Shown: positions 10,364-26,731, numbered from the stretch's first letter. The stretch is 30,460 nt of DNA from Olsenella sp. (GCA_015062715.1 SUUD01000001.1:1-30460); one strand, 5' to 3'. Notes: generated from the sequence alone by a model not told the origin. Translations and numbers: made by a program.

Positions 10364-11389
10364 ATGTATTGCTCTAAGTGCGGTGCGCAACTCCCGGACG
10401 GCTCCGCGTTCTGCCCCAAGTGCGGCGCGGCCCAGGCAGCTCCGGCCGCCCCGGTCGACGCGACGCAGCCCGCGACGCCCGTGGAGCCCGCCCAGGTAAC
10501 CCCTGCCGCGGCACAGGCCCAGTACGTGCCCGCGCCCGAGCCCGTGGCCCAGCCCGCGCAGGCCACGCCCCAGCCCGTCTCGGCTACCCCGCCCACGAGC
10601 GGTGCCTCGCAGCAGACCTACCAGCAGCCCTCCCAGCCCTCCTACGCCTACCAGGCGGTGCCGGCCGCGGCTCCCAAGAAGAAGTCGCCGCTCCCCGCGA
10701 TCATAGGGGCCGTCGCTGCCATCGCCGTGGTCGGCGCCGTAGGCATGCACTTCCTGGGCGGCGGGTCCGACCCCGAGCCGGCACCCAGCGCCCCCGAGGC
10801 GGCCACCACCGAGCCGGAGGCGACCGAGCCCGAGGCCACCGCGCCCGAGGCGATTTCCTCCGCCGACTACCTCGACTCCCATGGCAACCCCACCACCCGC
10901 GCCGTCTCCGACCTCAGCGGCGCCGACCTCGTGGCCCTGGTCGAGGGCGAGGGCTGGGAGTGGAGCGAGGACAAGCTCTGGTTCGTCTCGTCGACCCACG
11001 ACTACCTCTACGTCTTTGGTCCCGAAAACTACGAGTACACCTATGACGACACGGTCGGCCTGGGGCAGTTTGGCGGCAGCGAGCCCGTCACGTACCTGGT
11101 CGAGCTCGATGACGAGCACTATTCGTCGCTCGAGGACGCGATCGACTCGCTCATAACCCACGAGATCACGGACATCAGGTGGAACGATGACATGACCACG
11201 GCGCTGGTGTCCGTGAAGGGCTCGTCGACGGGGGACTTCATCGTCTTTGCGTATGTCAAGGAAGACTATGGTCTCTACAGCCTGAGGATCTTCAGCCCCG
11301 CGGCTATCGAGCAGGGCGAGTTCAACGCGTGGGTTGGCGAGGAGTCCGGCACGTCCGTTGACGAGATCTGGAGCAACCTCTTCGGATAA
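10364..11389 (+). CDS. Zinc-ribbon / Pro-rich / single-TM protein with acidic extracellular domain (paralogue 4)
   Basis: MYCSKCG..FCPKCG, KKKSPLP plus a TM helix nearly identical to paralogue 2, and the shared domain. SD GAGGAG. Confidence 0.88.
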   Translation: MYCSKCGAQLPDGSAFCPKCGAAQAAPAAPVDATQPATPVEPAQVTPAAAQAQYVPAPEPVAQPAQATPQPVSATPPTSGASQQTYQQPSQPSYAYQAVPAAAPKKKSPLPAIIGAVAAIAVVGAVGMHFLGGGSDPEPAPSAPEAATTEPEATEPEATAPEAISSADYLDSHGNPTTRAVSDLSGADLVALVEGEGWEWSEDKLWFVSSTHDYLYVFGPENYEYTYDDTVGLGQFGGSEPVTYLVELDDEHYSSLEDAIDSLITHEITDIRWNDDMTTALVSVKGSSTGDFIVFAYVKEDYGLYSLRIFSPAAIEQGEFNAWVGEESGTSVDEIWSNLFG

Positions 11390-11421
11390 TGCGTCCGCTG
11401 CACAACCTGGCGAGTTAGAAG

Positions 11422-11647
11422 GTCGCCCCGGGGGTTTCGTCTCCCGGGGCGACTCATGAGCACGGTGAGGCAGCCGGCCCGGAGGATTTGTCCCAGTTCG
11501 GGCGACTCATGGGCGCAGCCCATGAGCGAGCGAAGCGAGCGCGGAGCCTAGAACGGGACAAATCCTCCGGGCCGGCTGTCCCGGTCTGGACGAATCCTCC
11601 GGGCTGGCTGTCCCGGTCTGGGACGAATCCTCCGGGCTGGGTGTCCC
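11422..11647. repeat. Composite palindrome cluster: hairpins, a 24-bp inverted repeat and three tandem ~33-bp GGGAC..TGTCCC units
   Basis: Hairpin 11422-11453; 11471-11494 is the exact reverse complement of 11555-11578; tandem units begin at 11555, 11588 and 11620. Confidence 0.85.
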
Positions 11648-11707
11648 ACGGGTGAGTCTGTCGGTTTGGCAGAACCCGTCATGAGCGCTGCGCCAAGGGG
11701 TTCCCTG

Positions 11708-11716
11708 TGGTACAAC
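11708..11716 (+). promoter_or_regulatory. Putative extended -10 element for the thrS leader
   Basis: TGgTACAAC; no good -35 seen. Confidence 0.45.
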
Positions 11717-11717
11717 A

Positions 11718-11872
11718 GGTGGGTGCAAAACAAAGGGGAGGAACGGAGTTCATGCTCAACCAGCGAACTCAGACTCTATAGGCGCTTGTCCTTTCGCCGT
11801 GGCCACGGGCCATGCGACAAGCGCCACATGCCGCTCGGGGCCACCAGGCCCGGAGCTTTATTTTTGCCCACC
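11718..11872 (+). promoter_or_regulatory. Structured thrS leader with short uORF (11752-11781, MLNQRTQTL) and terminator (11833-11865); candidate attenuator
   Basis: GGAGG-preceded uORF with two ACT (Thr) codons; hairpins 11746-11770, 11781-11825 and 11833-11856; U-tract TTTATTTTT. No T-box consensus. Confidence 0.55.
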
Positions 11873-11903
11873 CCACCTCACGTCTAGAAGGCAAGGAGTC
11901 ATC

Positions 11904-13667
11904 ATGAAGATCCTGTACAGCGACGGTCGCGTCGACGAGTGCCCCGAGGACATCCTGGTCGATACCATCCGCCACAGCGCCTCACACATCATGGCGCAGG
12001 CCATCAAGCGCCTCTATCCCGAGGCCCACTTTGGCTTTGGCCCCTCCACCGAGAACGGCTTCTACTACGACATCGACCTGGGCGACGCCCACATCAGCGA
12101 GGACGACTTCCCCGCGATCGAGGCCGAGATGCGCAAGATCTGCAAGGAGAACCTCAAGTTCGAGACCTACGCCCTCTCGCACGAGGAGGCCAAGGAGCTC
12201 CTGCTGGGCCGCGGCGAGCACTATAAGGCCGAGCACGTCGACGACCTCGACCCCGAGGCGCCCATCACCTTCTTCCAGCAGGGCGAGTACATCGACATGT
12301 GCACCGGCCCCCACATCACCTACACCAAGGCCCTCAAGGCCTTCAAGCTCACGGCCGTCTCGGGCGCCTACTGGAAGAACGACGCCAACAACAAGATGCT
12401 CACCCGCATCAACGGCATCGCCTTCCCCACCAAGGAGGAGCTCGACGAGTACGAGCGCATGATCGAGGAGGCCAAGAAGCGCGACCACCGCAGGATCGGC
12501 CAGGAGATGGAGCTGTTCATGTTCGCCGACGAGGGCCCGGGCTTCCCGTTCTGGCTCCCCAACGGCACCAAGCTCAAGAACGCCCTCATCGACTACTGGC
12601 ACGAGATGATGGCCAAGTACAACTACGACGAGGTCGAGACCCCGCAGATCCTGTCGCGCAAGCTCTGGGAGACCAGCGGCCACTGGGACCACTACAAGGA
12701 GAACATGTACACGACGGTGATCGACGAGGAGGACTACGCCGTCAAGCCCATGAACTGCCCGGGCGCCTGCCTCATCTACAAGAGCCGCCCGCGCTCCTAC
12801 CGTGACCTGCCGCTCAAGCTCGCCGAGGCCGGCCTCGACCACCGCCACGAGCTCCGCGGCGCCCTGCACGGCCTCTTCCGCGTGCGCGCCTTCACTCAGG
12901 ACGACGGCCACATCTACGTGCGTCCCGACCAGATCTCGGACATCGTCCTCGAGACCGCCCGCCTGTTCGACGAGTACTACCACCAGTTCGGCTTCGAGTA
13001 CAAGGTCGAGCTCTCGACCCGTCCCGACGACTCCATGGGCTCCGACGAGGACTGGGAGCGTGCCGAGAACGGCCTGCGCGAGGCGCTCGAGAAGATGGGC
13101 AAGGACTACATCCTCAACGAGGGCGACGGCGCCTTCTACGGCCCCAAGATCGACTTCCACCTCAAGGACTGCCTGGGTCGCACCTGGCAGTGCGGCACCA
13201 TCCAGCTCGACTTCCAGCTCCCGCAGAACTTCGAGCTCGAGTACACGGGTGCCGACGGCGAGAAGCACCGCCCCATCATGATCCATCGCGCCGGCTTCGG
13301 CAGCTTCGAGCGCTTCATCGGCATGCTCACCGAGAACTACGCGGGCAAGTTCCCCACGTGGCTCGCGCCCTGCCAGGTCAAGGTCCTGCCCGTCTCCGAG
13401 AAGACCCGCGACTACGCCCTCGAGGTCGGCGCCGCCCTGCGCGCCGCCGGCGTGCGCGTCAAGGTCGACGAGCGCGACGAGAAGATCGGCTACAAGATCC
13501 GCGAGGCCCGTGGCATCGACCGCGTGCCCTACATGCTCATCCTGGGCGAGAAGGAGGCCGAGGGCGGCTATATCTCCGTCCGCGACCGCACCAACGAGAC
13601 CCACGAGGCCCAGCTCGACGAGTTCATCGCCCAGATCACCAAGGAGATCTGCGAGCGCCTGGGCTAG
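11904..13667 (+). CDS. thrS: Threonine--tRNA ligase (short form, apparently lacking the N-terminal TGS domain)
   Basis: Motifs RHSASH, DMCTGPH, RDHRRIG, SGHW, KPMNCP, GAFYGPKID and WQCGTIQLDF. SD AAGGAG before the ATG at 11904. Confidence 0.97.
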   Translation: MKILYSDGRVDECPEDILVDTIRHSASHIMAQAIKRLYPEAHFGFGPSTENGFYYDIDLGDAHISEDDFPAIEAEMRKICKENLKFETYALSHEEAKELLLGRGEHYKAEHVDDLDPEAPITFFQQGEYIDMCTGPHITYTKALKAFKLTAVSGAYWKNDANNKMLTRINGIAFPTKEELDEYERMIEEAKKRDHRRIGQEMELFMFADEGPGFPFWLPNGTKLKNALIDYWHEMMAKYNYDEVETPQILSRKLWETSGHWDHYKENMYTTVIDEEDYAVKPMNCPGACLIYKSRPRSYRDLPLKLAEAGLDHRHELRGALHGLFRVRAFTQDDGHIYVRPDQISDIVLETARLFDEYYHQFGFEYKVELSTRPDDSMGSDEDWERAENGLREALEKMGKDYILNEGDGAFYGPKIDFHLKDCLGRTWQCGTIQLDFQLPQNFELEYTGADGEKHRPIMIHRAGFGSFERFIGMLTENYAGKFPTWLAPCQVKVLPVSEKTRDYALEVGAALRAAGVRVKVDERDEKIGYKIREARGIDRVPYMLILGEKEAEGGYISVRDRTNETHEAQLDEFIAQITKEICERLG

Positions 13668-13728: not shown

Positions 13729-13748
13729 CCATAGGGGAGGTGCAAGTG

Positions 13749-14501
13749 ATGGAGGGCATGACCTGCAGCATGTCGGCACAGGCAGACGAGCTGCTCGCGG
13801 CGTTCGCCCGGCGCATGGGCGCCTGGCGCGTGTGGCTGCTGCGCATGGACGCGGGGGACCTGCTCCGCGTGATGGGCGGGGCGGCAGGCGTCCCCGTCGA
13901 GGTCGGCCACGCCCTTGGCGGCACGCCGCTGTGCGTGCCCGACCTGCGCCTGCGCTCGCGCGAGACCTGGGGCGGCGCGCTCTTCGTCGTGGACACCTCG
14001 CTTGCCACCTCCGCCCTGTGCGCCCCCATCAAGCTTGGGGCTCCCGCCTGCGTCGAGTCGCTCGACACCATGCTGGGGCAGGAGGGCTCGGGCCTTGTCG
14101 TGGCGGGCGTTGGCCGCAAGTGCCGCTGGCGCGAGGCCCTGGCGTCCGCGCTCGACGGGCTTGCCGCCAGCCCCGGGCACGCCCCGCGCCTGTGGGATCC
14201 GGCGCTCGTGTCGGCCAGGCTCGAGGGGCTCGACGAGCGCATGCGCGCCGCGAGCGACGTCGCCCAGGAGGTCGCGACCTACCTCTCCTGCCACCCGCGC
14301 GTCTCGATGGTGCGCTACCCGGGGCTTCGCGAGGACCCTTCCTACGAGAACGCGGCCTCCGACCTGCACCACGGCTTTGGCCCATTCGTCGACTACCTGG
14401 TCAAGGGCGAGCACGAATGGCGGCGCCTGAGCTGCCTGGGAGCCGACGGCGCCCGCGACGTGGCCGAGATGGTCGGGCAGCTCGAGAAGGAGATGTCCTA
14501 G
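13749..14501 (+). CDS. Degenerate Cys/Met-metabolism PLP-dependent enzyme homologue (MetB/MetC-like), PLP lysine apparently absent
   Basis: VDTSLATS..PIKLGA..VESLDTMLG aligns by eye with VDNTFATP..PLELGA..VHSATKYLG; C-terminal ERM..VA.YL..HPRV..VRYPGL..P..GFG. The start could be 13740, 13746 or 13749. Confidence 0.7.
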   Translation: MEGMTCSMSAQADELLAAFARRMGAWRVWLLRMDAGDLLRVMGGAAGVPVEVGHALGGTPLCVPDLRLRSRETWGGALFVVDTSLATSALCAPIKLGAPACVESLDTMLGQEGSGLVVAGVGRKCRWREALASALDGLAASPGHAPRLWDPALVSARLEGLDERMRAASDVAQEVATYLSCHPRVSMVRYPGLREDPSYENAASDLHHGFGPFVDYLVKGEHEWRRLSCLGADGARDVAEMVGQLEKEMS

Positions 14502-22851: not shown

Positions 22852-23117
22852 TTAGGCGATGACGGAGAGGTTCCGGGCTCGCGTGACCGGTGGACAGAGA
22901 GGGCACCCCAGGCTGAGAGGCGCCCACGCCAGTCGAGCGCGGGAGTTCACTCCACCAGCCGCGACCTGAACGGGCCCGCCCCCAGTAGGGAAGCCGTACG
23001 CCCCACGGAACGGGGCTCAACGAGTGGACGCTCGCGAGAGAAAACGCGCACGTCAATCAAGGTGGTACCGCGGAGATGATCCGTCCTTGGGCACACAGGC
23101 ACAGGGACGGCTTTTTT
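22852..23117 (+). promoter_or_regulatory. T-box riboswitch (Phe), transcriptional type
   Basis: 5' GCGATGA, AG box AGAGAG (22896), distal GCTGAGA (22912), specifier TTC (22946-22948), stem II GAA/AGTA, T-box AAGGTGGTACCGCGG (23059-23073), and terminator CCGTCC..GGGACGG plus TTTTTT. Extended -10 TGcTACCAT at 22837-22845. Confidence 0.93.
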
Positions 23118-23167
23118 GTCCCGAAAGACGATGCGGCCACGCGCCGCGCAGGGAAGGGGTTCGCAAG

Positions 23168-24235
23168 ATGTCACTGACCGACGACCTCAGGCTCATCGGC
23201 GAGCAGGCGCAGGAGATGATCGCCGGCGTCGCCTCGCTCGAGGAGCTCGACGCCATCCGCGTCGCCGTCATGGGTAAGAAGGGCTCGCTCACGGCGGCCA
23301 TGAAGGGCATGGGCAAGCTCGCCCCCGAGGAGCGCCCGCAGGTGGGCAAGCTCGCCAACGAGGTCCGCGCCCGCGTCGAGGCAGAGCTCGAGGCCCGCAA
23401 GGCCGAGCTCTCCGCCATCGCCATGCAGGCGCGCTTTGCCAAGGACGCCGTCGACGTCACCCTGCCGGGCAGGGGCCTCTCGCTGGGCACCCAGCACCTC
23501 ATCTCGCAGATCCGCGAGGAGATCGAGGACATCTTCTGCGGCCTGGGCTACATCGTGGCCGACGGCCCCTACGTCGAGACCACCTGGTACAACTTCACGG
23601 CCCTCAACGCCCCGGCCGACCACCCCAGCCGCAGCGCGCGCGACTCGTTCTACGTGGTCGACAACGCCCCCGAGGGCAAGGAGCCGCTGGTCCTGGGCGA
23701 CTCCGACGTCCTTCTGCGCACCCAGACCTCGGGCATGCAGGTCCACTTCATGGAGCAGAACAAGCCGCCCATCTACATGATCTGCCCGGGCACGGTCTTC
23801 CGCCCCGACACGGCCGACGCCAACCACCTCCCGCAGTTCAACCAGGTGGAGGGCCTCGTCGTCGACGAGGGCATCACCTTCGGCGACCTCAAGGGCACCC
23901 TCGACTACTTCACGCGCGAGATCTTCGGCAAGGACCGCGCCACCCGCTACCGCCCGCACTTCTTCCCGTTCACCGAGCCCAGCTGCGAGGTCGACGTGTC
24001 GTGCGGCGTCTGCGGGGGCAAGGGCTGCCGCTTCTGCAAGAACACCGGCTGGCTCGAGATTCTGGGCTGCGGCATGGTCGACCCCAACGTCCTCGAGAAC
24101 TGCGGCATCGACTCCGAGCGCTACACCGGCTTTGCCTTCGGCATTGGCGTCGAGCGTGTCGCGGCGCTTCGCTACGACCTTCCCGACCTGCGCATGCTCA
24201 TGGACGGCGACATGCGCTTCCTGCGCCAGTTCTAG
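23168..24235 (+). CDS. pheS: Phenylalanine--tRNA ligase alpha subunit
   Basis: DVTLPG, NFTALN.P.DHP, LLRTQTS, FNQVEGL, FFPFTEPS and GFAFGIGVER. Confidence 0.97.
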   Translation: MSLTDDLRLIGEQAQEMIAGVASLEELDAIRVAVMGKKGSLTAAMKGMGKLAPEERPQVGKLANEVRARVEAELEARKAELSAIAMQARFAKDAVDVTLPGRGLSLGTQHLISQIREEIEDIFCGLGYIVADGPYVETTWYNFTALNAPADHPSRSARDSFYVVDNAPEGKEPLVLGDSDVLLRTQTSGMQVHFMEQNKPPIYMICPGTVFRPDTADANHLPQFNQVEGLVVDEGITFGDLKGTLDYFTREIFGKDRATRYRPHFFPFTEPSCEVDVSCGVCGGKGCRFCKNTGWLEILGCGMVDPNVLENCGIDSERYTGFAFGIGVERVAALRYDLPDLRMLMDGDMRFLRQF

Positions 24236-24274: not shown

Positions 24275-26731
24275 ATGCGCGTCTCATACGAATGGCTCAA
24301 GGACATGGTCGACCTGCCCGACGACCCGGCCGAGCTGGTGGCGGAGTTCGTCCGCACCGGCACCGAGGTCGAGGGCGTCATCGACACCGCGGCCAACCTC
24401 AGGGGCGTGGTCACCGGCCACGTGCTCAGCTGCGAGCCCCATCCCGACTCCGACCACATGCACGTCTGCTCCGTCGACGTGGGCCGGAAGAACCTCGACG
24501 AGGACGGCAACCCCGCGCCGCTGCAGATCGTGTGCGGCGCACCCAACATGCGCGCCGGCCTCAAGGTGGCCGTCGCCACCATCGGCACCGTGCTCCCCGG
24601 CGACTTCAAGATCGAGCGCGCCAAGAAGCGTGGCGTGGTCTCGATGGGCATGTGCTGCTCGTCGGCCGAGCTTGGCCTCGACGCCGACCACTCGGGCATC
24701 ATCGAGCTGCCCGAGGACACGCCCGTGGGCCTGGACTACGCCCAGTGGAGCGGCATCGGCGACACCATCCTCGACTGCGAGATGACCCCCAACCGACCCG
24801 ACTGCCTGTCCATGTGCGGCGTGGCCGTCGAGGTGAGCGCCATGCTCGACAAGGACACCCACTTCGACCTGCCCCGCATTCAGAAGGAGGAGGGCCCCGA
24901 CGCCCACGAGCTGGTGGACGTTGCCATCGACGACGCCACCCTGTGCCCGCGCTACACCGCCCGCGTGGTGCGCAACGTCAAGATCGGCCCGTCCCCCGAG
25001 TGGCTCGCCCGCCGCGTGACCGCCGCCGGCGGCCGCCCCATCAACAACGTGGTCGACGTCACCAACTACGTCATGTACCTCACCGGCCAGCCCCTGCACG
25101 CCTTTGACCTGGGCAAGCTCTCCGAGCGCGACGGCAAGCGCCACATCGTCGTGCGCGCCGCCCGCGAGGGCGAGGTGCTCGTCACCCTCGACGGCCAGGA
25201 GCGCCACCTCATTCCCGAGAACACCCTCATCACCGACGACGGCGAGACCCCCATCGCGCTGGCCGGCGTCATGGGCGGGCTCGACTCCGAGATCGACGAG
25301 AACACCGTGGACGTCCTGCTCGAGAGCGCCGCGTTCAACAGCGGCAACATCTCGCGCACGAGCCGCGTTCTCGACCTCATGAGCGAGGCCTCGATCCGCT
25401 ATGAGCGCGTGGTCGACGCCAACGGCTGCGCCGCCGTGAGCGACATTGCGGCCGCCCTGTTCGAGAGCTGCTGCGGCGCCACCGTGTGCCCGGGCATGGT
25501 CGACTGCTATCCCAAGGCCATCGTCCCGCCGACCATCCCCTTCCGGCCCGAGCGCGTCCGCGCGATCGCCGGCGCCCCCCTCGACGACGACTTCATGGCC
25601 TGCCGCCTGGCGCGCCTGGGCTGCGGCGTCGAGCGCGCGGACGGCACCTGGAGCGTCACCGCGCCCACCAACCGCCCCGACCTCACCCGCGAGATCGACC
25701 TCGTCGAGGAGGTCGTGCGCCTGTGGGGCGAGGGTGACATCGAGCCCACCCTGCCCGCCGCGCGCAACCACGCGGGCGGCCTCACCGTCGAGCAGCAGCG
25801 CCTGCGCACCATCGGCCAGACCATGCGCGCCTGCGGCCTCTGCGAGACGAGCACCTACTGCTTCGCCGACCCGCGCGACCTCGAGCGCCTGGGCATGACC
25901 GAGCAGGGCAAGGGCGTCCCCGTCAAGATCATCCGCCCGCTCGTGGCAGACCAGAGCGAGATGCGCCGCGACCTTATCCCGGGCCTGCTGCGCGCCGTCG
26001 CCTACAACAAGGACCACGGCGTCGCCAACGTCCACCTGTACGAGGTCGGCCGCACGCTCTACGGCCGCGCGCACCGCAGCACCCCCGACGAGCCCACCTA
26101 CGTGGCGGCCGTCATGTCGGGCAGCTGGGACGAGGACGGCTGGAACGCCAAGCATCCCGAGCTCGACTTCTTCGACGCCAAGGGCATCGTGGAGCAGCTG
26201 CTGTCCACGCTGCGCATCTCCAAGGTGCGCTTCAAGCCCACCGACCCTGCCGCCTATGGCTGGCTGCAGCCGGGCCGCGGCGCCGAGGTCCTGGGCGAGG
26301 GCGAGCTTCTCGGCTGGGTGGGCAACATCCATCCCACGTCGCTTGCCAACTTTGGCGTGGACGACCCGGTCGTGGCCTTCGAGCTGTCGGTTGACGCCCT
26401 GCAGCGCCTGGCCAAGCGCCAGCTGCCCTACCAGGACGTGCCCACGCTCCCGGGCGTCGACGTCGACCTCGCCATCGTGGTCGACGAGGAGGTCACCTGC
26501 GAGATGCTCGAGCAGCGCATCGCCTCGGCCGGCGGCAAGCTCCTGCGCGAGGTGCGCCTGTTCGACGTCTACCGCGACCCAATCCGCGTCGGCCTGGGCA
26601 AGAAGTCCATGGCCTTCGCGCTCACGTACCGCGCCGACGACCACACCCTCACCTCCGAGGAGGTCGAGAAGGTCCACGGCAAGCTCGTGACCAAGGTCTG
26701 CAAGGCCACGGGCGGCGAGGTCCGCGGCTAG
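24275..26731 (+). CDS. pheT: Phenylalanine--tRNA ligase beta subunit
   Basis: HPDSD, IVCGAPN, TPNRPD, INNVVDVTNY, GQPLHAFD, ALAGVMGG and KSMAF. Confidence 0.97.
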   Translation: MRVSYEWLKDMVDLPDDPAELVAEFVRTGTEVEGVIDTAANLRGVVTGHVLSCEPHPDSDHMHVCSVDVGRKNLDEDGNPAPLQIVCGAPNMRAGLKVAVATIGTVLPGDFKIERAKKRGVVSMGMCCSSAELGLDADHSGIIELPEDTPVGLDYAQWSGIGDTILDCEMTPNRPDCLSMCGVAVEVSAMLDKDTHFDLPRIQKEEGPDAHELVDVAIDDATLCPRYTARVVRNVKIGPSPEWLARRVTAAGGRPINNVVDVTNYVMYLTGQPLHAFDLGKLSERDGKRHIVVRAAREGEVLVTLDGQERHLIPENTLITDDGETPIALAGVMGGLDSEIDENTVDVLLESAAFNSGNISRTSRVLDLMSEASIRYERVVDANGCAAVSDIAAALFESCCGATVCPGMVDCYPKAIVPPTIPFRPERVRAIAGAPLDDDFMACRLARLGCGVERADGTWSVTAPTNRPDLTREIDLVEEVVRLWGEGDIEPTLPAARNHAGGLTVEQQRLRTIGQTMRACGLCETSTYCFADPRDLERLGMTEQGKGVPVKIIRPLVADQSEMRRDLIPGLLRAVAYNKDHGVANVHLYEVGRTLYGRAHRSTPDEPTYVAAVMSGSWDEDGWNAKHPELDFFDAKGIVEQLLSTLRISKVRFKPTDPAAYGWLQPGRGAEVLGEGELLGWVGNIHPTSLANFGVDDPVVAFELSVDALQRLAKRQLPYQDVPTLPGVDVDLAIVVDEEVTCEMLEQRIASAGGKLLREVRLFDVYRDPIRVGLGKKSMAFALTYRADDHTLTSEEVEKVHGKLVTKVCKATGGEVRG

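Follow-up and report, generated by a model that had tools for sequence, protein, structure and literature searches.

A threonine-codon leader ORF fused to a conserved hairpin upstream of thrS in Coriobacteriales: evidence for probable ribosome-mediated attenuation

Introduction

How is the threonyl-tRNA synthetase (ThrRS) gene thrS controlled in an actinobacterium whose thrS leader is not a T-box? In Firmicutes thrS is usually controlled by a T-box (RF00230), and in Actinobacteria the same holds for ileS. The question is raised by a stretch of 30,460 nucleotides (nt) of Olsenella sp. (GCA_015062715.1 SUUD01000001.1:1-30460, hereafter the window), in which the thrS leader occupies positions 11708-11903. 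Read from the sequence, the leader consists of an extended -10 element, a Shine-Dalgarno (SD) region, a short upstream open reading frame (uORF), a hairpin that we call P1, an intrinsic terminator with its U tract, and then thrS. A preliminary description of this DNA proposed a threonine-sensing leader-peptide attenuator or a novel structured RNA. The elements it listed (extended -10, SD, uORF, hairpins, and terminator) were all located where it had put them.

Here, we compared this leader with those of related genomes. Conservation extends to the ORF, to threonine codons at set distances from its stop, to P1, and to the terminator, and the unit occurs in a single copy next to thrS. We consider the leader to be a ribosome-mediated, threonine-codon-dependent attenuator, with a probability of roughly 0.7.

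Results

A small ORF fused to a hairpin recurs upstream of thrS

The thrS loci of 40 related genomes were collected and their upstream regions were read. Many of them share the block CGA ACT CAG ACT ATC TAG GCGYCTGYC ... GRCAGRCGCC, which is the end of a small ORF fused to P1. A pattern search over 401 genomes of the class, together with further retrievals, yielded 44 unique leaders with a uORF ATG and SD. The pattern matches AGGCTTTCTAGGCGCTTG and AGACTCTGTAGGGGACTG, from genus g37, proved to be unrelated sequences and were discarded.

A covariance model, R1, was built on the core formed by the Thr codons and P1. In the genome from which the window comes it gave a single strong site, which lies at thrS. 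Across the order, 29 of 151 sampled genomes, from three families, contained one site each; by family, the model found 18/22 genomes in that of the window and 8/21 and 2/19 in the two others, and no site in the remaining families sampled among the 151. The distribution is patchy, as the closest relative (80% ThrRS identity) and several others are without the element, and no alternative Thr-rich uORF was seen in relatives that have no motif. The uORF-P1 unit adjoins thrS on either strand and despite differing upstream genes, and is found once per genome. Judged by the sampled genomes, the element is thus patchy yet recurrent, present in a single copy and linked exclusively to thrS.

Two types of ThrRS are encountered within the same family or order (loci L024-L030), one of the window type (69-80% identity) and a second type (45-49% identity, aligning from about residue 20). 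The leader also precedes a second-type ThrRS (46% identical) in two genomes (L027 and L030), where it lies approximately 300-350 nt upstream.

Threonine codons are kept at fixed distances from the uORF stop

Both Thr codons of the window's nine-codon uORF are ACT. The preliminary description had contrasted this with the surrounding genes, and the contrast holds genome-wide: at a G+C content of 66.9%, the 540 long ORFs of the genome use ACT for 1.7% of their Thr codons, against 61.8% for ACC and 34.3% for ACG. Two ACT among nine codons are therefore beyond the expectation from composition. Genes for tRNA-Thr with the anticodons GGU and UGU were found by ARAGORN; ACU would be decoded by the GGU tRNA-Thr through a wobble pair.

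Homologous uORFs with the end [R]-T-x-T-x-UAG are common to all leaders examined; their length ranges from 9 to about 30 codons. Codon conservation was counted over 35 distinct leaders from three families. The stop is UAG in 35/35, and its G is the first base of P1. Codon -2 from the stop is Thr in 35/35 (ACT in 33, ACA in 2), and codon -4 is Thr in 30/35 (16 ACT, 10 ACG, 2 ACC, and 2 ACA). At codon -4 the entropy of the third position is 1.38 versus 0.3 at positions 1 and 2, an excess that constitutes a coding signature. The uORF has exactly 14 codons in 19 leaders, which combine an ATG, an SD 7-10 nt upstream, a variable interior, an intact frame, and the end R-T-Q-T-I-stop. Thus, the uORF and the threonine codons on which the preliminary description depended are conserved, together with the frame and the fusion of UAG to P1.

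Departures from the common end are informative as well. Several lineages have added Thr codons (GIPTTTTTTI, TGRTTTSETRTQTI, NTQTQTM, TTETM, MMAIWCFTTETM, and ARTQALTQTI), and one genus has the end T-L-T-R-stop. In one leader (L005) the end R-T-V-T-A-stop is encoded by CGG ACG GTG ACC GCA TAG, with ACC at -2; all codons are unlike the consensus, yet Arg, Thr, and Thr are retained. In this leader amino-acid or tRNA identity has been kept and the nucleotides have not. Taken with the synonymous use and the Thr runs, the recoding points to selection on decoding rather than on RNA sequence. Arg at -5 is likewise retained through the synonymous codons CGA, CGT, CGC, and CGG.

One species of genus g17 offers a natural variant without the stop-hairpin fusion (L113, G121:C1:333693-333759). 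Its TAG is replaced, with CGA/GAG (ACT ATC GAG GCG), and the uORF continues through P1 for approximately 30 further codons. In many relatives (L004, L009, L015, L018, L073-L075, L103, and L113), the leader is preceded by a gene for a zinc-ribbon protein with the end WKVCPYCRTRIQ-stop or similar. In L018 the end of that gene, CGA ACT AGG ATC CTC TAG GCG, resembles the uORF end CGA ACT CAG ACT ATC TAG GCG; the likeness may be a coincidence or a clue to where the uORF came from.

P1 and the terminator alone rank far above shuffled sequences in a segment scan

P1 comprises a 10-bp lower stem (GGCGCTTGTC paired with GACAAGCGCC), an internal loop that is asymmetric and rich in pyrimidines, and a GC hairpin at the apex. 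Its folding energy of -27.3 kcal/mol corresponds to a z-score of -4.5, and 0/200 shuffles were equally good. Among 32 sequences, 98.4% of the cells of the lower stem are paired and compensatory changes occur at 5/10 pairs. No variation was seen in the first four pairs, GGCG/CGCC, and a U-G pair is present in 23/32. The terminator hairpin (-19.9 kcal/mol, z -3.95) has one G-G mismatch and the loop ACCA. A hairpin followed by a U tract was seen in 24 aligned leaders of relatives, with a sequence-conserved stem base, CGCUCG/CGGGCG, and a variable upper stem. A simple terminator scan reported no terminator-like site within 11200-12100; the stem of this terminator carries the one mismatch. In an all-against-all pairing scan of 13 leader segments, only P1 (mean z -3.67) and the terminator (mean z -2.86) were far above shuffles.

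Three hairpins had been described, and the comparison upholds two of them, P1 and the terminator. The first, P0, in which the SD/AUG region pairs with the Arg and first Thr codons, has a folding energy of -8.5 kcal/mol (z -2.96) in the window and occurs in a subset of leaders, only those with ACU at -4; pairing of this type has a mean z of -0.49 across leaders. Relatives with the P0 pairing are L012, L068, and L069. If real, P0 would restrict the uORF to ribosomes that load co-transcriptionally.

The preliminary description further envisaged a four-way structure closed over the U tract. The minimum free energy (MFE) fold of 11712-11910 is indeed a four-way junction that includes such a closing helix (-79.3 kcal/mol, z -3.58). 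The helix itself was rejected as a conserved feature, as shuffles of matched composition reach similar energies (z -0.08) and 18 other leaders contain nothing equivalent. The four-way structure is therefore specific to the window sequence. In sum, conservation places the uORF, P1, and the terminator beyond chance, but not the closing helix.

The leader matches no known RNA family

An Rfam search of the whole window at gathering scores gave 0 matches. When all 4227 Rfam families were run by cmscan in E-value mode against 11350-12000, no T-box, no Thr_leader, and nothing else relevant was found. T-box RF00230 had no match in the thrS leader even at E<=10, in agreement with the claim that the leader is not a T-box. 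Matches to miRNA-like and preQ1-III models fell in the upstream repeats and were rejected as being at chance level.

T-box-like sites were found elsewhere in the genome. A partial match just upstream of pheS, at 31 bits, covers model positions 159-216 and is far below the Rfam cut-off of 93 bits; pheS (Pfam Phe_tRNA-synt_N and tRNA-synt_2d) is followed by pheT. A fuller site with 60 bits lies at contig C6:4006-4243, and a third is on C238. By their sequence, all three look like atypical actinobacterial T-boxes under the Rfam thresholds. The matches at pheS and C6 suggest that the genome employs T-box-like leaders for other genes. The earlier statement that it uses a T-box for pheS is thus broadly right, the match before pheS and pheT being partial and sub-threshold.

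A stalled ribosome could couple threonine supply to thrS transcription

From this layout, we infer that the uORF is translated, that thrS is induced when threonine is short, and that a stalled ribosome promotes readthrough. The transcript would begin just downstream of the extended -10 and bear the short leader ORF, whose last five codons are R-T-x-T-x and whose UAG provides the G with which the strong and conserved P1 begins; the terminator follows 7 nt after P1, with thrS next. When charged tRNA-Thr is ample, the ribosome would pass the Thr codons, terminate at UAG, and depart. With the ribosome gone, P1 and the terminator would form, and most transcripts would stop before thrS. When charged tRNA-Thr is scarce, owing to low threonine or ThrRS activity, the ribosome would wait with the invariant -2 Thr codon in the A site, and its mRNA entry channel would cover the first bases of P1, the invariant GGCG. 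The usual modelling assumption is that about 12 nt are covered downstream of the codon being read (PMC4833913), so that a stall at -2 would keep GGCGUCU single-stranded. The 3' strand of P1, ending in the palindrome GGCGCC, would be set free and would hinder closing of the terminator stem base CGCUCG/CGGGCG; RNA polymerase would read through and thrS would be made.

A candidate for the switch lies in the palindrome. Its CGCC pairs with the P1 5' strand, and the overlapping GGCG is complementary to CGCU of the terminator base. The GGCG:CGCU pairing is complementary in 21-24 of 24 leaders, and 80.8% of its cells are paired versus 25-61% with the partner slid. When truncated transcripts were folded with the P1 5' strand masked, the 3' strand paired with the terminator 5' arm in several leaders. 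The modelled pairing is a candidate. A 1:2 / 2:3 / 3:4 scheme would result from it, and the sequence conservation of the terminator base would be accounted for.

Comparative conservation supports the Thr-sensing leader peptide proposed in the preliminary description, with the response to threonine as a prediction. Several observations weigh against this attenuator. The leader has just two Thr codons, far below classical leaders, and the synonymous retention of Arg -5 hints at a possible role of the peptide. For the P1 3' strand with the terminator 5' arm, duplex energies are the same as in dinucleotide shuffles (mean z -0.15), with duplexes above shuffles in L075 and L013 only, and no covariation was found in the candidate GGCG:CGCU helix. 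Full-length MFE folds retain the terminator in nearly every modelled ribosome position, and the modelled stall re-pairs the P1 3' strand into the terminator region in L006 and L063 only. Equilibrium folds of the E. coli trp leader likewise keep the terminator, and the choice there is kinetic. Several lineages keep the uORF and P1 without a terminator. In these, the modelled accessibility of the thrS SD does not change consistently upon opening of P1, and translational control was rejected for them on this ground.

The geometry raises a further difficulty. The helicase site of the ribosome is about 11-13 nt from the P site, and P1 may stay nearly intact when the stall is at -2. P1 would be opened further from the stop codon than from the stall site, and the model accordingly requires rapid release at UAG. 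In some lineages, Thr codons far upstream would hold the ribosome off P1.

The preliminary description had identified no convincing antiterminator. Masked folds, duplex energies, and the segment scan also revealed none with statistical support. Three pairings or likenesses noticed by eye were set aside as not significant in the segment scan: the uORF start AUGCAGCGC with GCGCC-GCAU, a likeness of the uORF interior to the linker and terminator 5' arm taken together, and the P1 internal loop as an anti-SD.

In metatranscriptome data, which contain only fragments as assembled contigs, just one contig, at low depth and from a close relative, covers 11709-11975 and so runs through the terminator into thrS. 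Its last uORF codon differs synonymously, CTA>CTC. At best it hints weakly at the existence of readthrough transcripts. As such contigs show no starts, ends, or levels, they provide no evidence for or against attenuation.

Other readings of the element

The same facts admit another device, which we regard as possible though doubtful. The leader may be a minimal, position-coded ribosome sensor without an alternative-hairpin switch, in which a lone Thr two codons before the hairpin-fused stop lets the state of ribosome and P1 act directly. The ribosome would dock on, or partly unzip, the invariant GGCGCC base of P1, and the output would be, for example, RNA polymerase pausing, mRNA stability, or access of Rho. 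This would explain why the uORF-P1 unit is kept with or without the terminator and why an antiterminator is missing.

In a second alternative, the nascent peptide is the sensor. An R-T-x-T-x C-terminus would pause the ribosome at UAG, perhaps in dependence on a small molecule as in TnaC, and hold P1 open, and Thr would be conserved for the peptide. The Arg -5 retained through four synonymous codons, the invariant T-x-T-x-stop spacing and exclusive use of UAG, the missing classical antiterminator, and the geometry, by which P1 would be unwound further from the stop than from -2, fit such an arrest. All residues other than Thr -2 vary, though, as in KETM, AKQTM, VRTI, TLTR, and TTTI, and so does the length of the uORF. 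The lineage-specific Thr runs, such as TTTTTTI, are a hallmark of tRNA sensing rather than of an arrest peptide, and the exclusive linkage to thrS indicates Thr-tRNA as the signal. We therefore consider this reading unlikely.

The logic could also run in the opposite direction. Full translation of the uORF would then open P1 and permit thrS expression, so that thrS tracks translation capacity and stalling at Thr codons lowers it. It is consistent with the geometry, since full unwinding of P1 takes a ribosome on the last codons or the stop, and with the naked RNA folding as P1 plus terminator; moreover, a stall at the Thr codons lying far 5' of P1 in some leaders would leave P1 closed. As this is the only ThrRS gene found, however, such wiring would be a destabilising positive feedback, with less ThrRS giving more stalling and still less ThrRS, and it offers no reason for the selection of cognate Thr codons. 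Known leaders of aminoacyl-tRNA synthetase genes, namely T-boxes and E. coli pheST, are induced by starvation (PMC1262725). This reading, too, seems improbable to us.

Still harder to sustain is an operator formed by structured RNA or bound by a protein, such as P1 bound by ThrRS as a mimic of tRNA-Thr, with the small ORF incidental or serving for coupling only. E. coli thrS, the same gene, is controlled in this manner through its 5' leader, where ThrRS represses its own synthesis at tRNA-Thr-like hairpins, and in the lower stem of P1 the sequence as well as the pairing is conserved, with the invariant GGCG/CGCC and frequent U-G pair. P1 is unlike both the acceptor stem and the anticodon arm of the genome's tRNA-Thr(GGU) and tRNA-Thr(UGU), and its apical loops (GGCA, GCGA, ACG, and others) are without an NGU anticodon-like motif; a tRNA-Thr mimic in P1 was rejected accordingly. 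Unlike the E. coli operator, P1 is tied to a conserved uORF and ends 79 nt before the thrS ATG, and so cannot compete with 30S binding. Conservation of the ORF's frame, start, Thr codons, and stop would be unexpected for an incidental ORF, and Rfam families gave no match. We hold this reading to be very improbable.

That there is no regulation at all, with the hairpins as the terminator region of the upstream gene or an adjacent repeat element and the ORF arising by chance, is scarcely credible: the upstream intergenic region is rich in repeats and hairpins, but the repeats lie outside the conserved unit, which stands beside thrS with varied upstream genes, and a chance origin is excluded by the conservation seen across the compared leaders.

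Layout of the leader and neighbouring sequence

The coordinates are given in Table 1. A sigma-70 consensus promoter scan of the leader gave no match, so the assignment of the extended -10 draws on conservation: relatives have TGTGGTAAACC or GTGGTACAAC upstream of the uORF at a comparable distance. They also have GAAAGG or AAGGAG 7-10 nt 5' of the uORF ATG. The Pfam domains of the thrS product correspond to the editing-type, class II core, and anticodon-binding parts of ThrRS, and no TGS domain was found by Pfam in the 587-aa protein. It is the sole ThrRS-like gene found in an assembly that is 90.6% complete.

The region upstream of the thrS promoter is a nest of repeats, containing a perfect inverted repeat, a unit in three tandem copies that also pairs with the first inverted-repeat arm, and a direct repeat. 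From its sequence, the nest could be a repetitive extragenic palindrome-like or miniature inverted-repeat transposable element-like (REP/MITE-like) element or the terminator region of the upstream gene. The gene after thrS has only a partial Cys_Met_Meta_PP match, to profile positions 167-310 of 381.

Table 1. Features of the thrS leader and other sites in the window.
Feature	Position	Strand	Evidence	Remark
Repeat nest	11440-11660			upstream of thrS promoter
Direct repeat, 15 nt	11447 / 11500
Inverted repeat, 24 nt, perfect	11471-11494 / 11555-11578
Tandem repeat, 32-nt unit, three copies	11556-11652
Extended -10, predicted promoter element	11708-11716	+	sequence and conservation in relatives	TGgTACAAC
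Closing helix	11718-11730 / 11861-11872		MFE fold	rejected as a conserved feature
SD region of uORF	11735-11748	+	sequence	GGGGAGG 11735-11741, GGAG 11745-11748
Hairpin P0	11746-11770	+	folding	GAGUUC (SD/AUG region) with GAACUC (Arg and first Thr codon)
Leader ORF	11752-11781	+	sequence and homologous uORFs	MLNQRTQTL-stop, 9 codons + TAG; ATG CTC AAC CAG CGA ACT CAG ACT CTA TAG
Thr codon -4	11767-11769	+	conservation	ACT
Thr codon -2	11773-11775	+	conservation	ACT; invariant, proposed sensor codon
Hairpin P1	11781-11825	+	folding and covariation	first base is G of uORF stop; lower stem 11781-11790 with 11816-11825
Linker, 7 nt	11826-11832	+	sequence	ACAUGCC, P1 to terminator; relatives mostly GCAUAU or ACAU
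Intrinsic terminator	11833-11865	+	folding and aligned relatives	hairpin 11833-11856, U tract TTTATTTTT 11857-11865
SD of thrS	11893-11898	+	sequence	AAGGAG, 5 nt before ATG at 11904
thrS, threonyl-tRNA synthetase	11904-13667	+	Pfam tRNA_SAD, tRNA-synt_2b, HGTP_anticodon	587 aa
Gene after thrS	13740-14501		partial Pfam match	253 aa
Partial T-box match	23022-23088		RF00230, 31 bits	sub-threshold
pheS	23024-24235		Pfam
pheT	24275-26731

Discussion

The closest functional parallels are the leader of E. coli pheM-pheST (Rfam Phe_leader) and the thr, his, trp, and leu leaders, which share with the present element a leader ORF of cognate codons, hairpins, and an intrinsic terminator. The expected logic, from stall to readthrough, is likewise the same, and the pheM leader in addition stands in front of an aminoacyl-tRNA synthetase gene. 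The Coriobacteriales leader differs from these systems in several respects. It has no sequence or Rfam relationship to them, its one or two control codons are fixed at -2 and -4 instead of forming a run, and its stop codon is fused to the first hairpin. It also has no statistically supported 2:3 antiterminator, and in some lineages the terminator is absent.

Leader ORFs without the classical three-hairpin switch are known from elsewhere. In the mycobacterial Cys-codon leader ORFs, which have no terminators, and in tnaC, with its stalling at the stop codon, ribosome occupancy near the stop of a short ORF decides downstream expression. They differ from the thrS leader in the amino acids and in the outputs (exposure of the ribosome-binding site, Rho). 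A T-box, like the proposed attenuator, controls aminoacyl-tRNA synthetase genes by tRNA charging and often through a terminator. The thrS leader is without Stem I, the specifier loop, and the T-box sequence, and its sensing is proposed to take place via the translating ribosome rather than by direct tRNA binding.

For an aminoacyl-tRNA synthetase gene, leader-peptide attenuation is established in E. coli pheST. Within Actinobacteria, classical attenuators have been predicted upstream of trpS and leuS of Streptomyces on the pattern of pheST, and a survey from 2005 recorded no conserved Thr-related RNA element in the phylum (PMC1262725). In S. lividans, the leader peptides thrL-thrS, leuL-leuS, trpL-trpS, and alaL-alaS were predicted, thrL from RNA-seq; the thrL peptide, MKRVRPFLETTPGFVPAR, has only two Thr codons and precedes thrS (PMC8079986). 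All these Streptomyces leaders stand as predictions with no functional test. The S. lividans thrL thus represents the same idea in the same phylum, a thrS leader peptide with two Thr codons. The Streptomyces thrL differs in being leaderless, in having its Thr codons mid-peptide, and in having a hairpin without a U tract. Inspection of the published peptide, to which this comparison is confined, showed no common peptide end, P1 motif, or spacing. The Coriobacteriales element is accordingly a family of about 45 leaders that is independent of Streptomyces thrL. Full-text literature searches found no published description of a Coriobacteriales thrS leader element. It is a real and undescribed leader-peptide element of an aminoacyl-tRNA synthetase gene whose underlying principle is known.

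With about 45 leaders, one per genome, the element constitutes an uncatalogued cis-regulatory family that is usable as an Rfam-style annotation model. Its fixed geometry is unusual among attenuators: Thr is at -2, the hairpin base to which the stop is fused is invariant, and a clear antiterminator is missing. This makes it a compact test case for the minimum number of control codons in a ribosome-based sensor and for the coupling of a stalled ribosome to termination. For the organisms themselves, the finding means that common gut Actinobacteria of the order Coriobacteriales probably adjust their sole ThrRS via a translated leader, and not via a T-box or a ThrRS operator.

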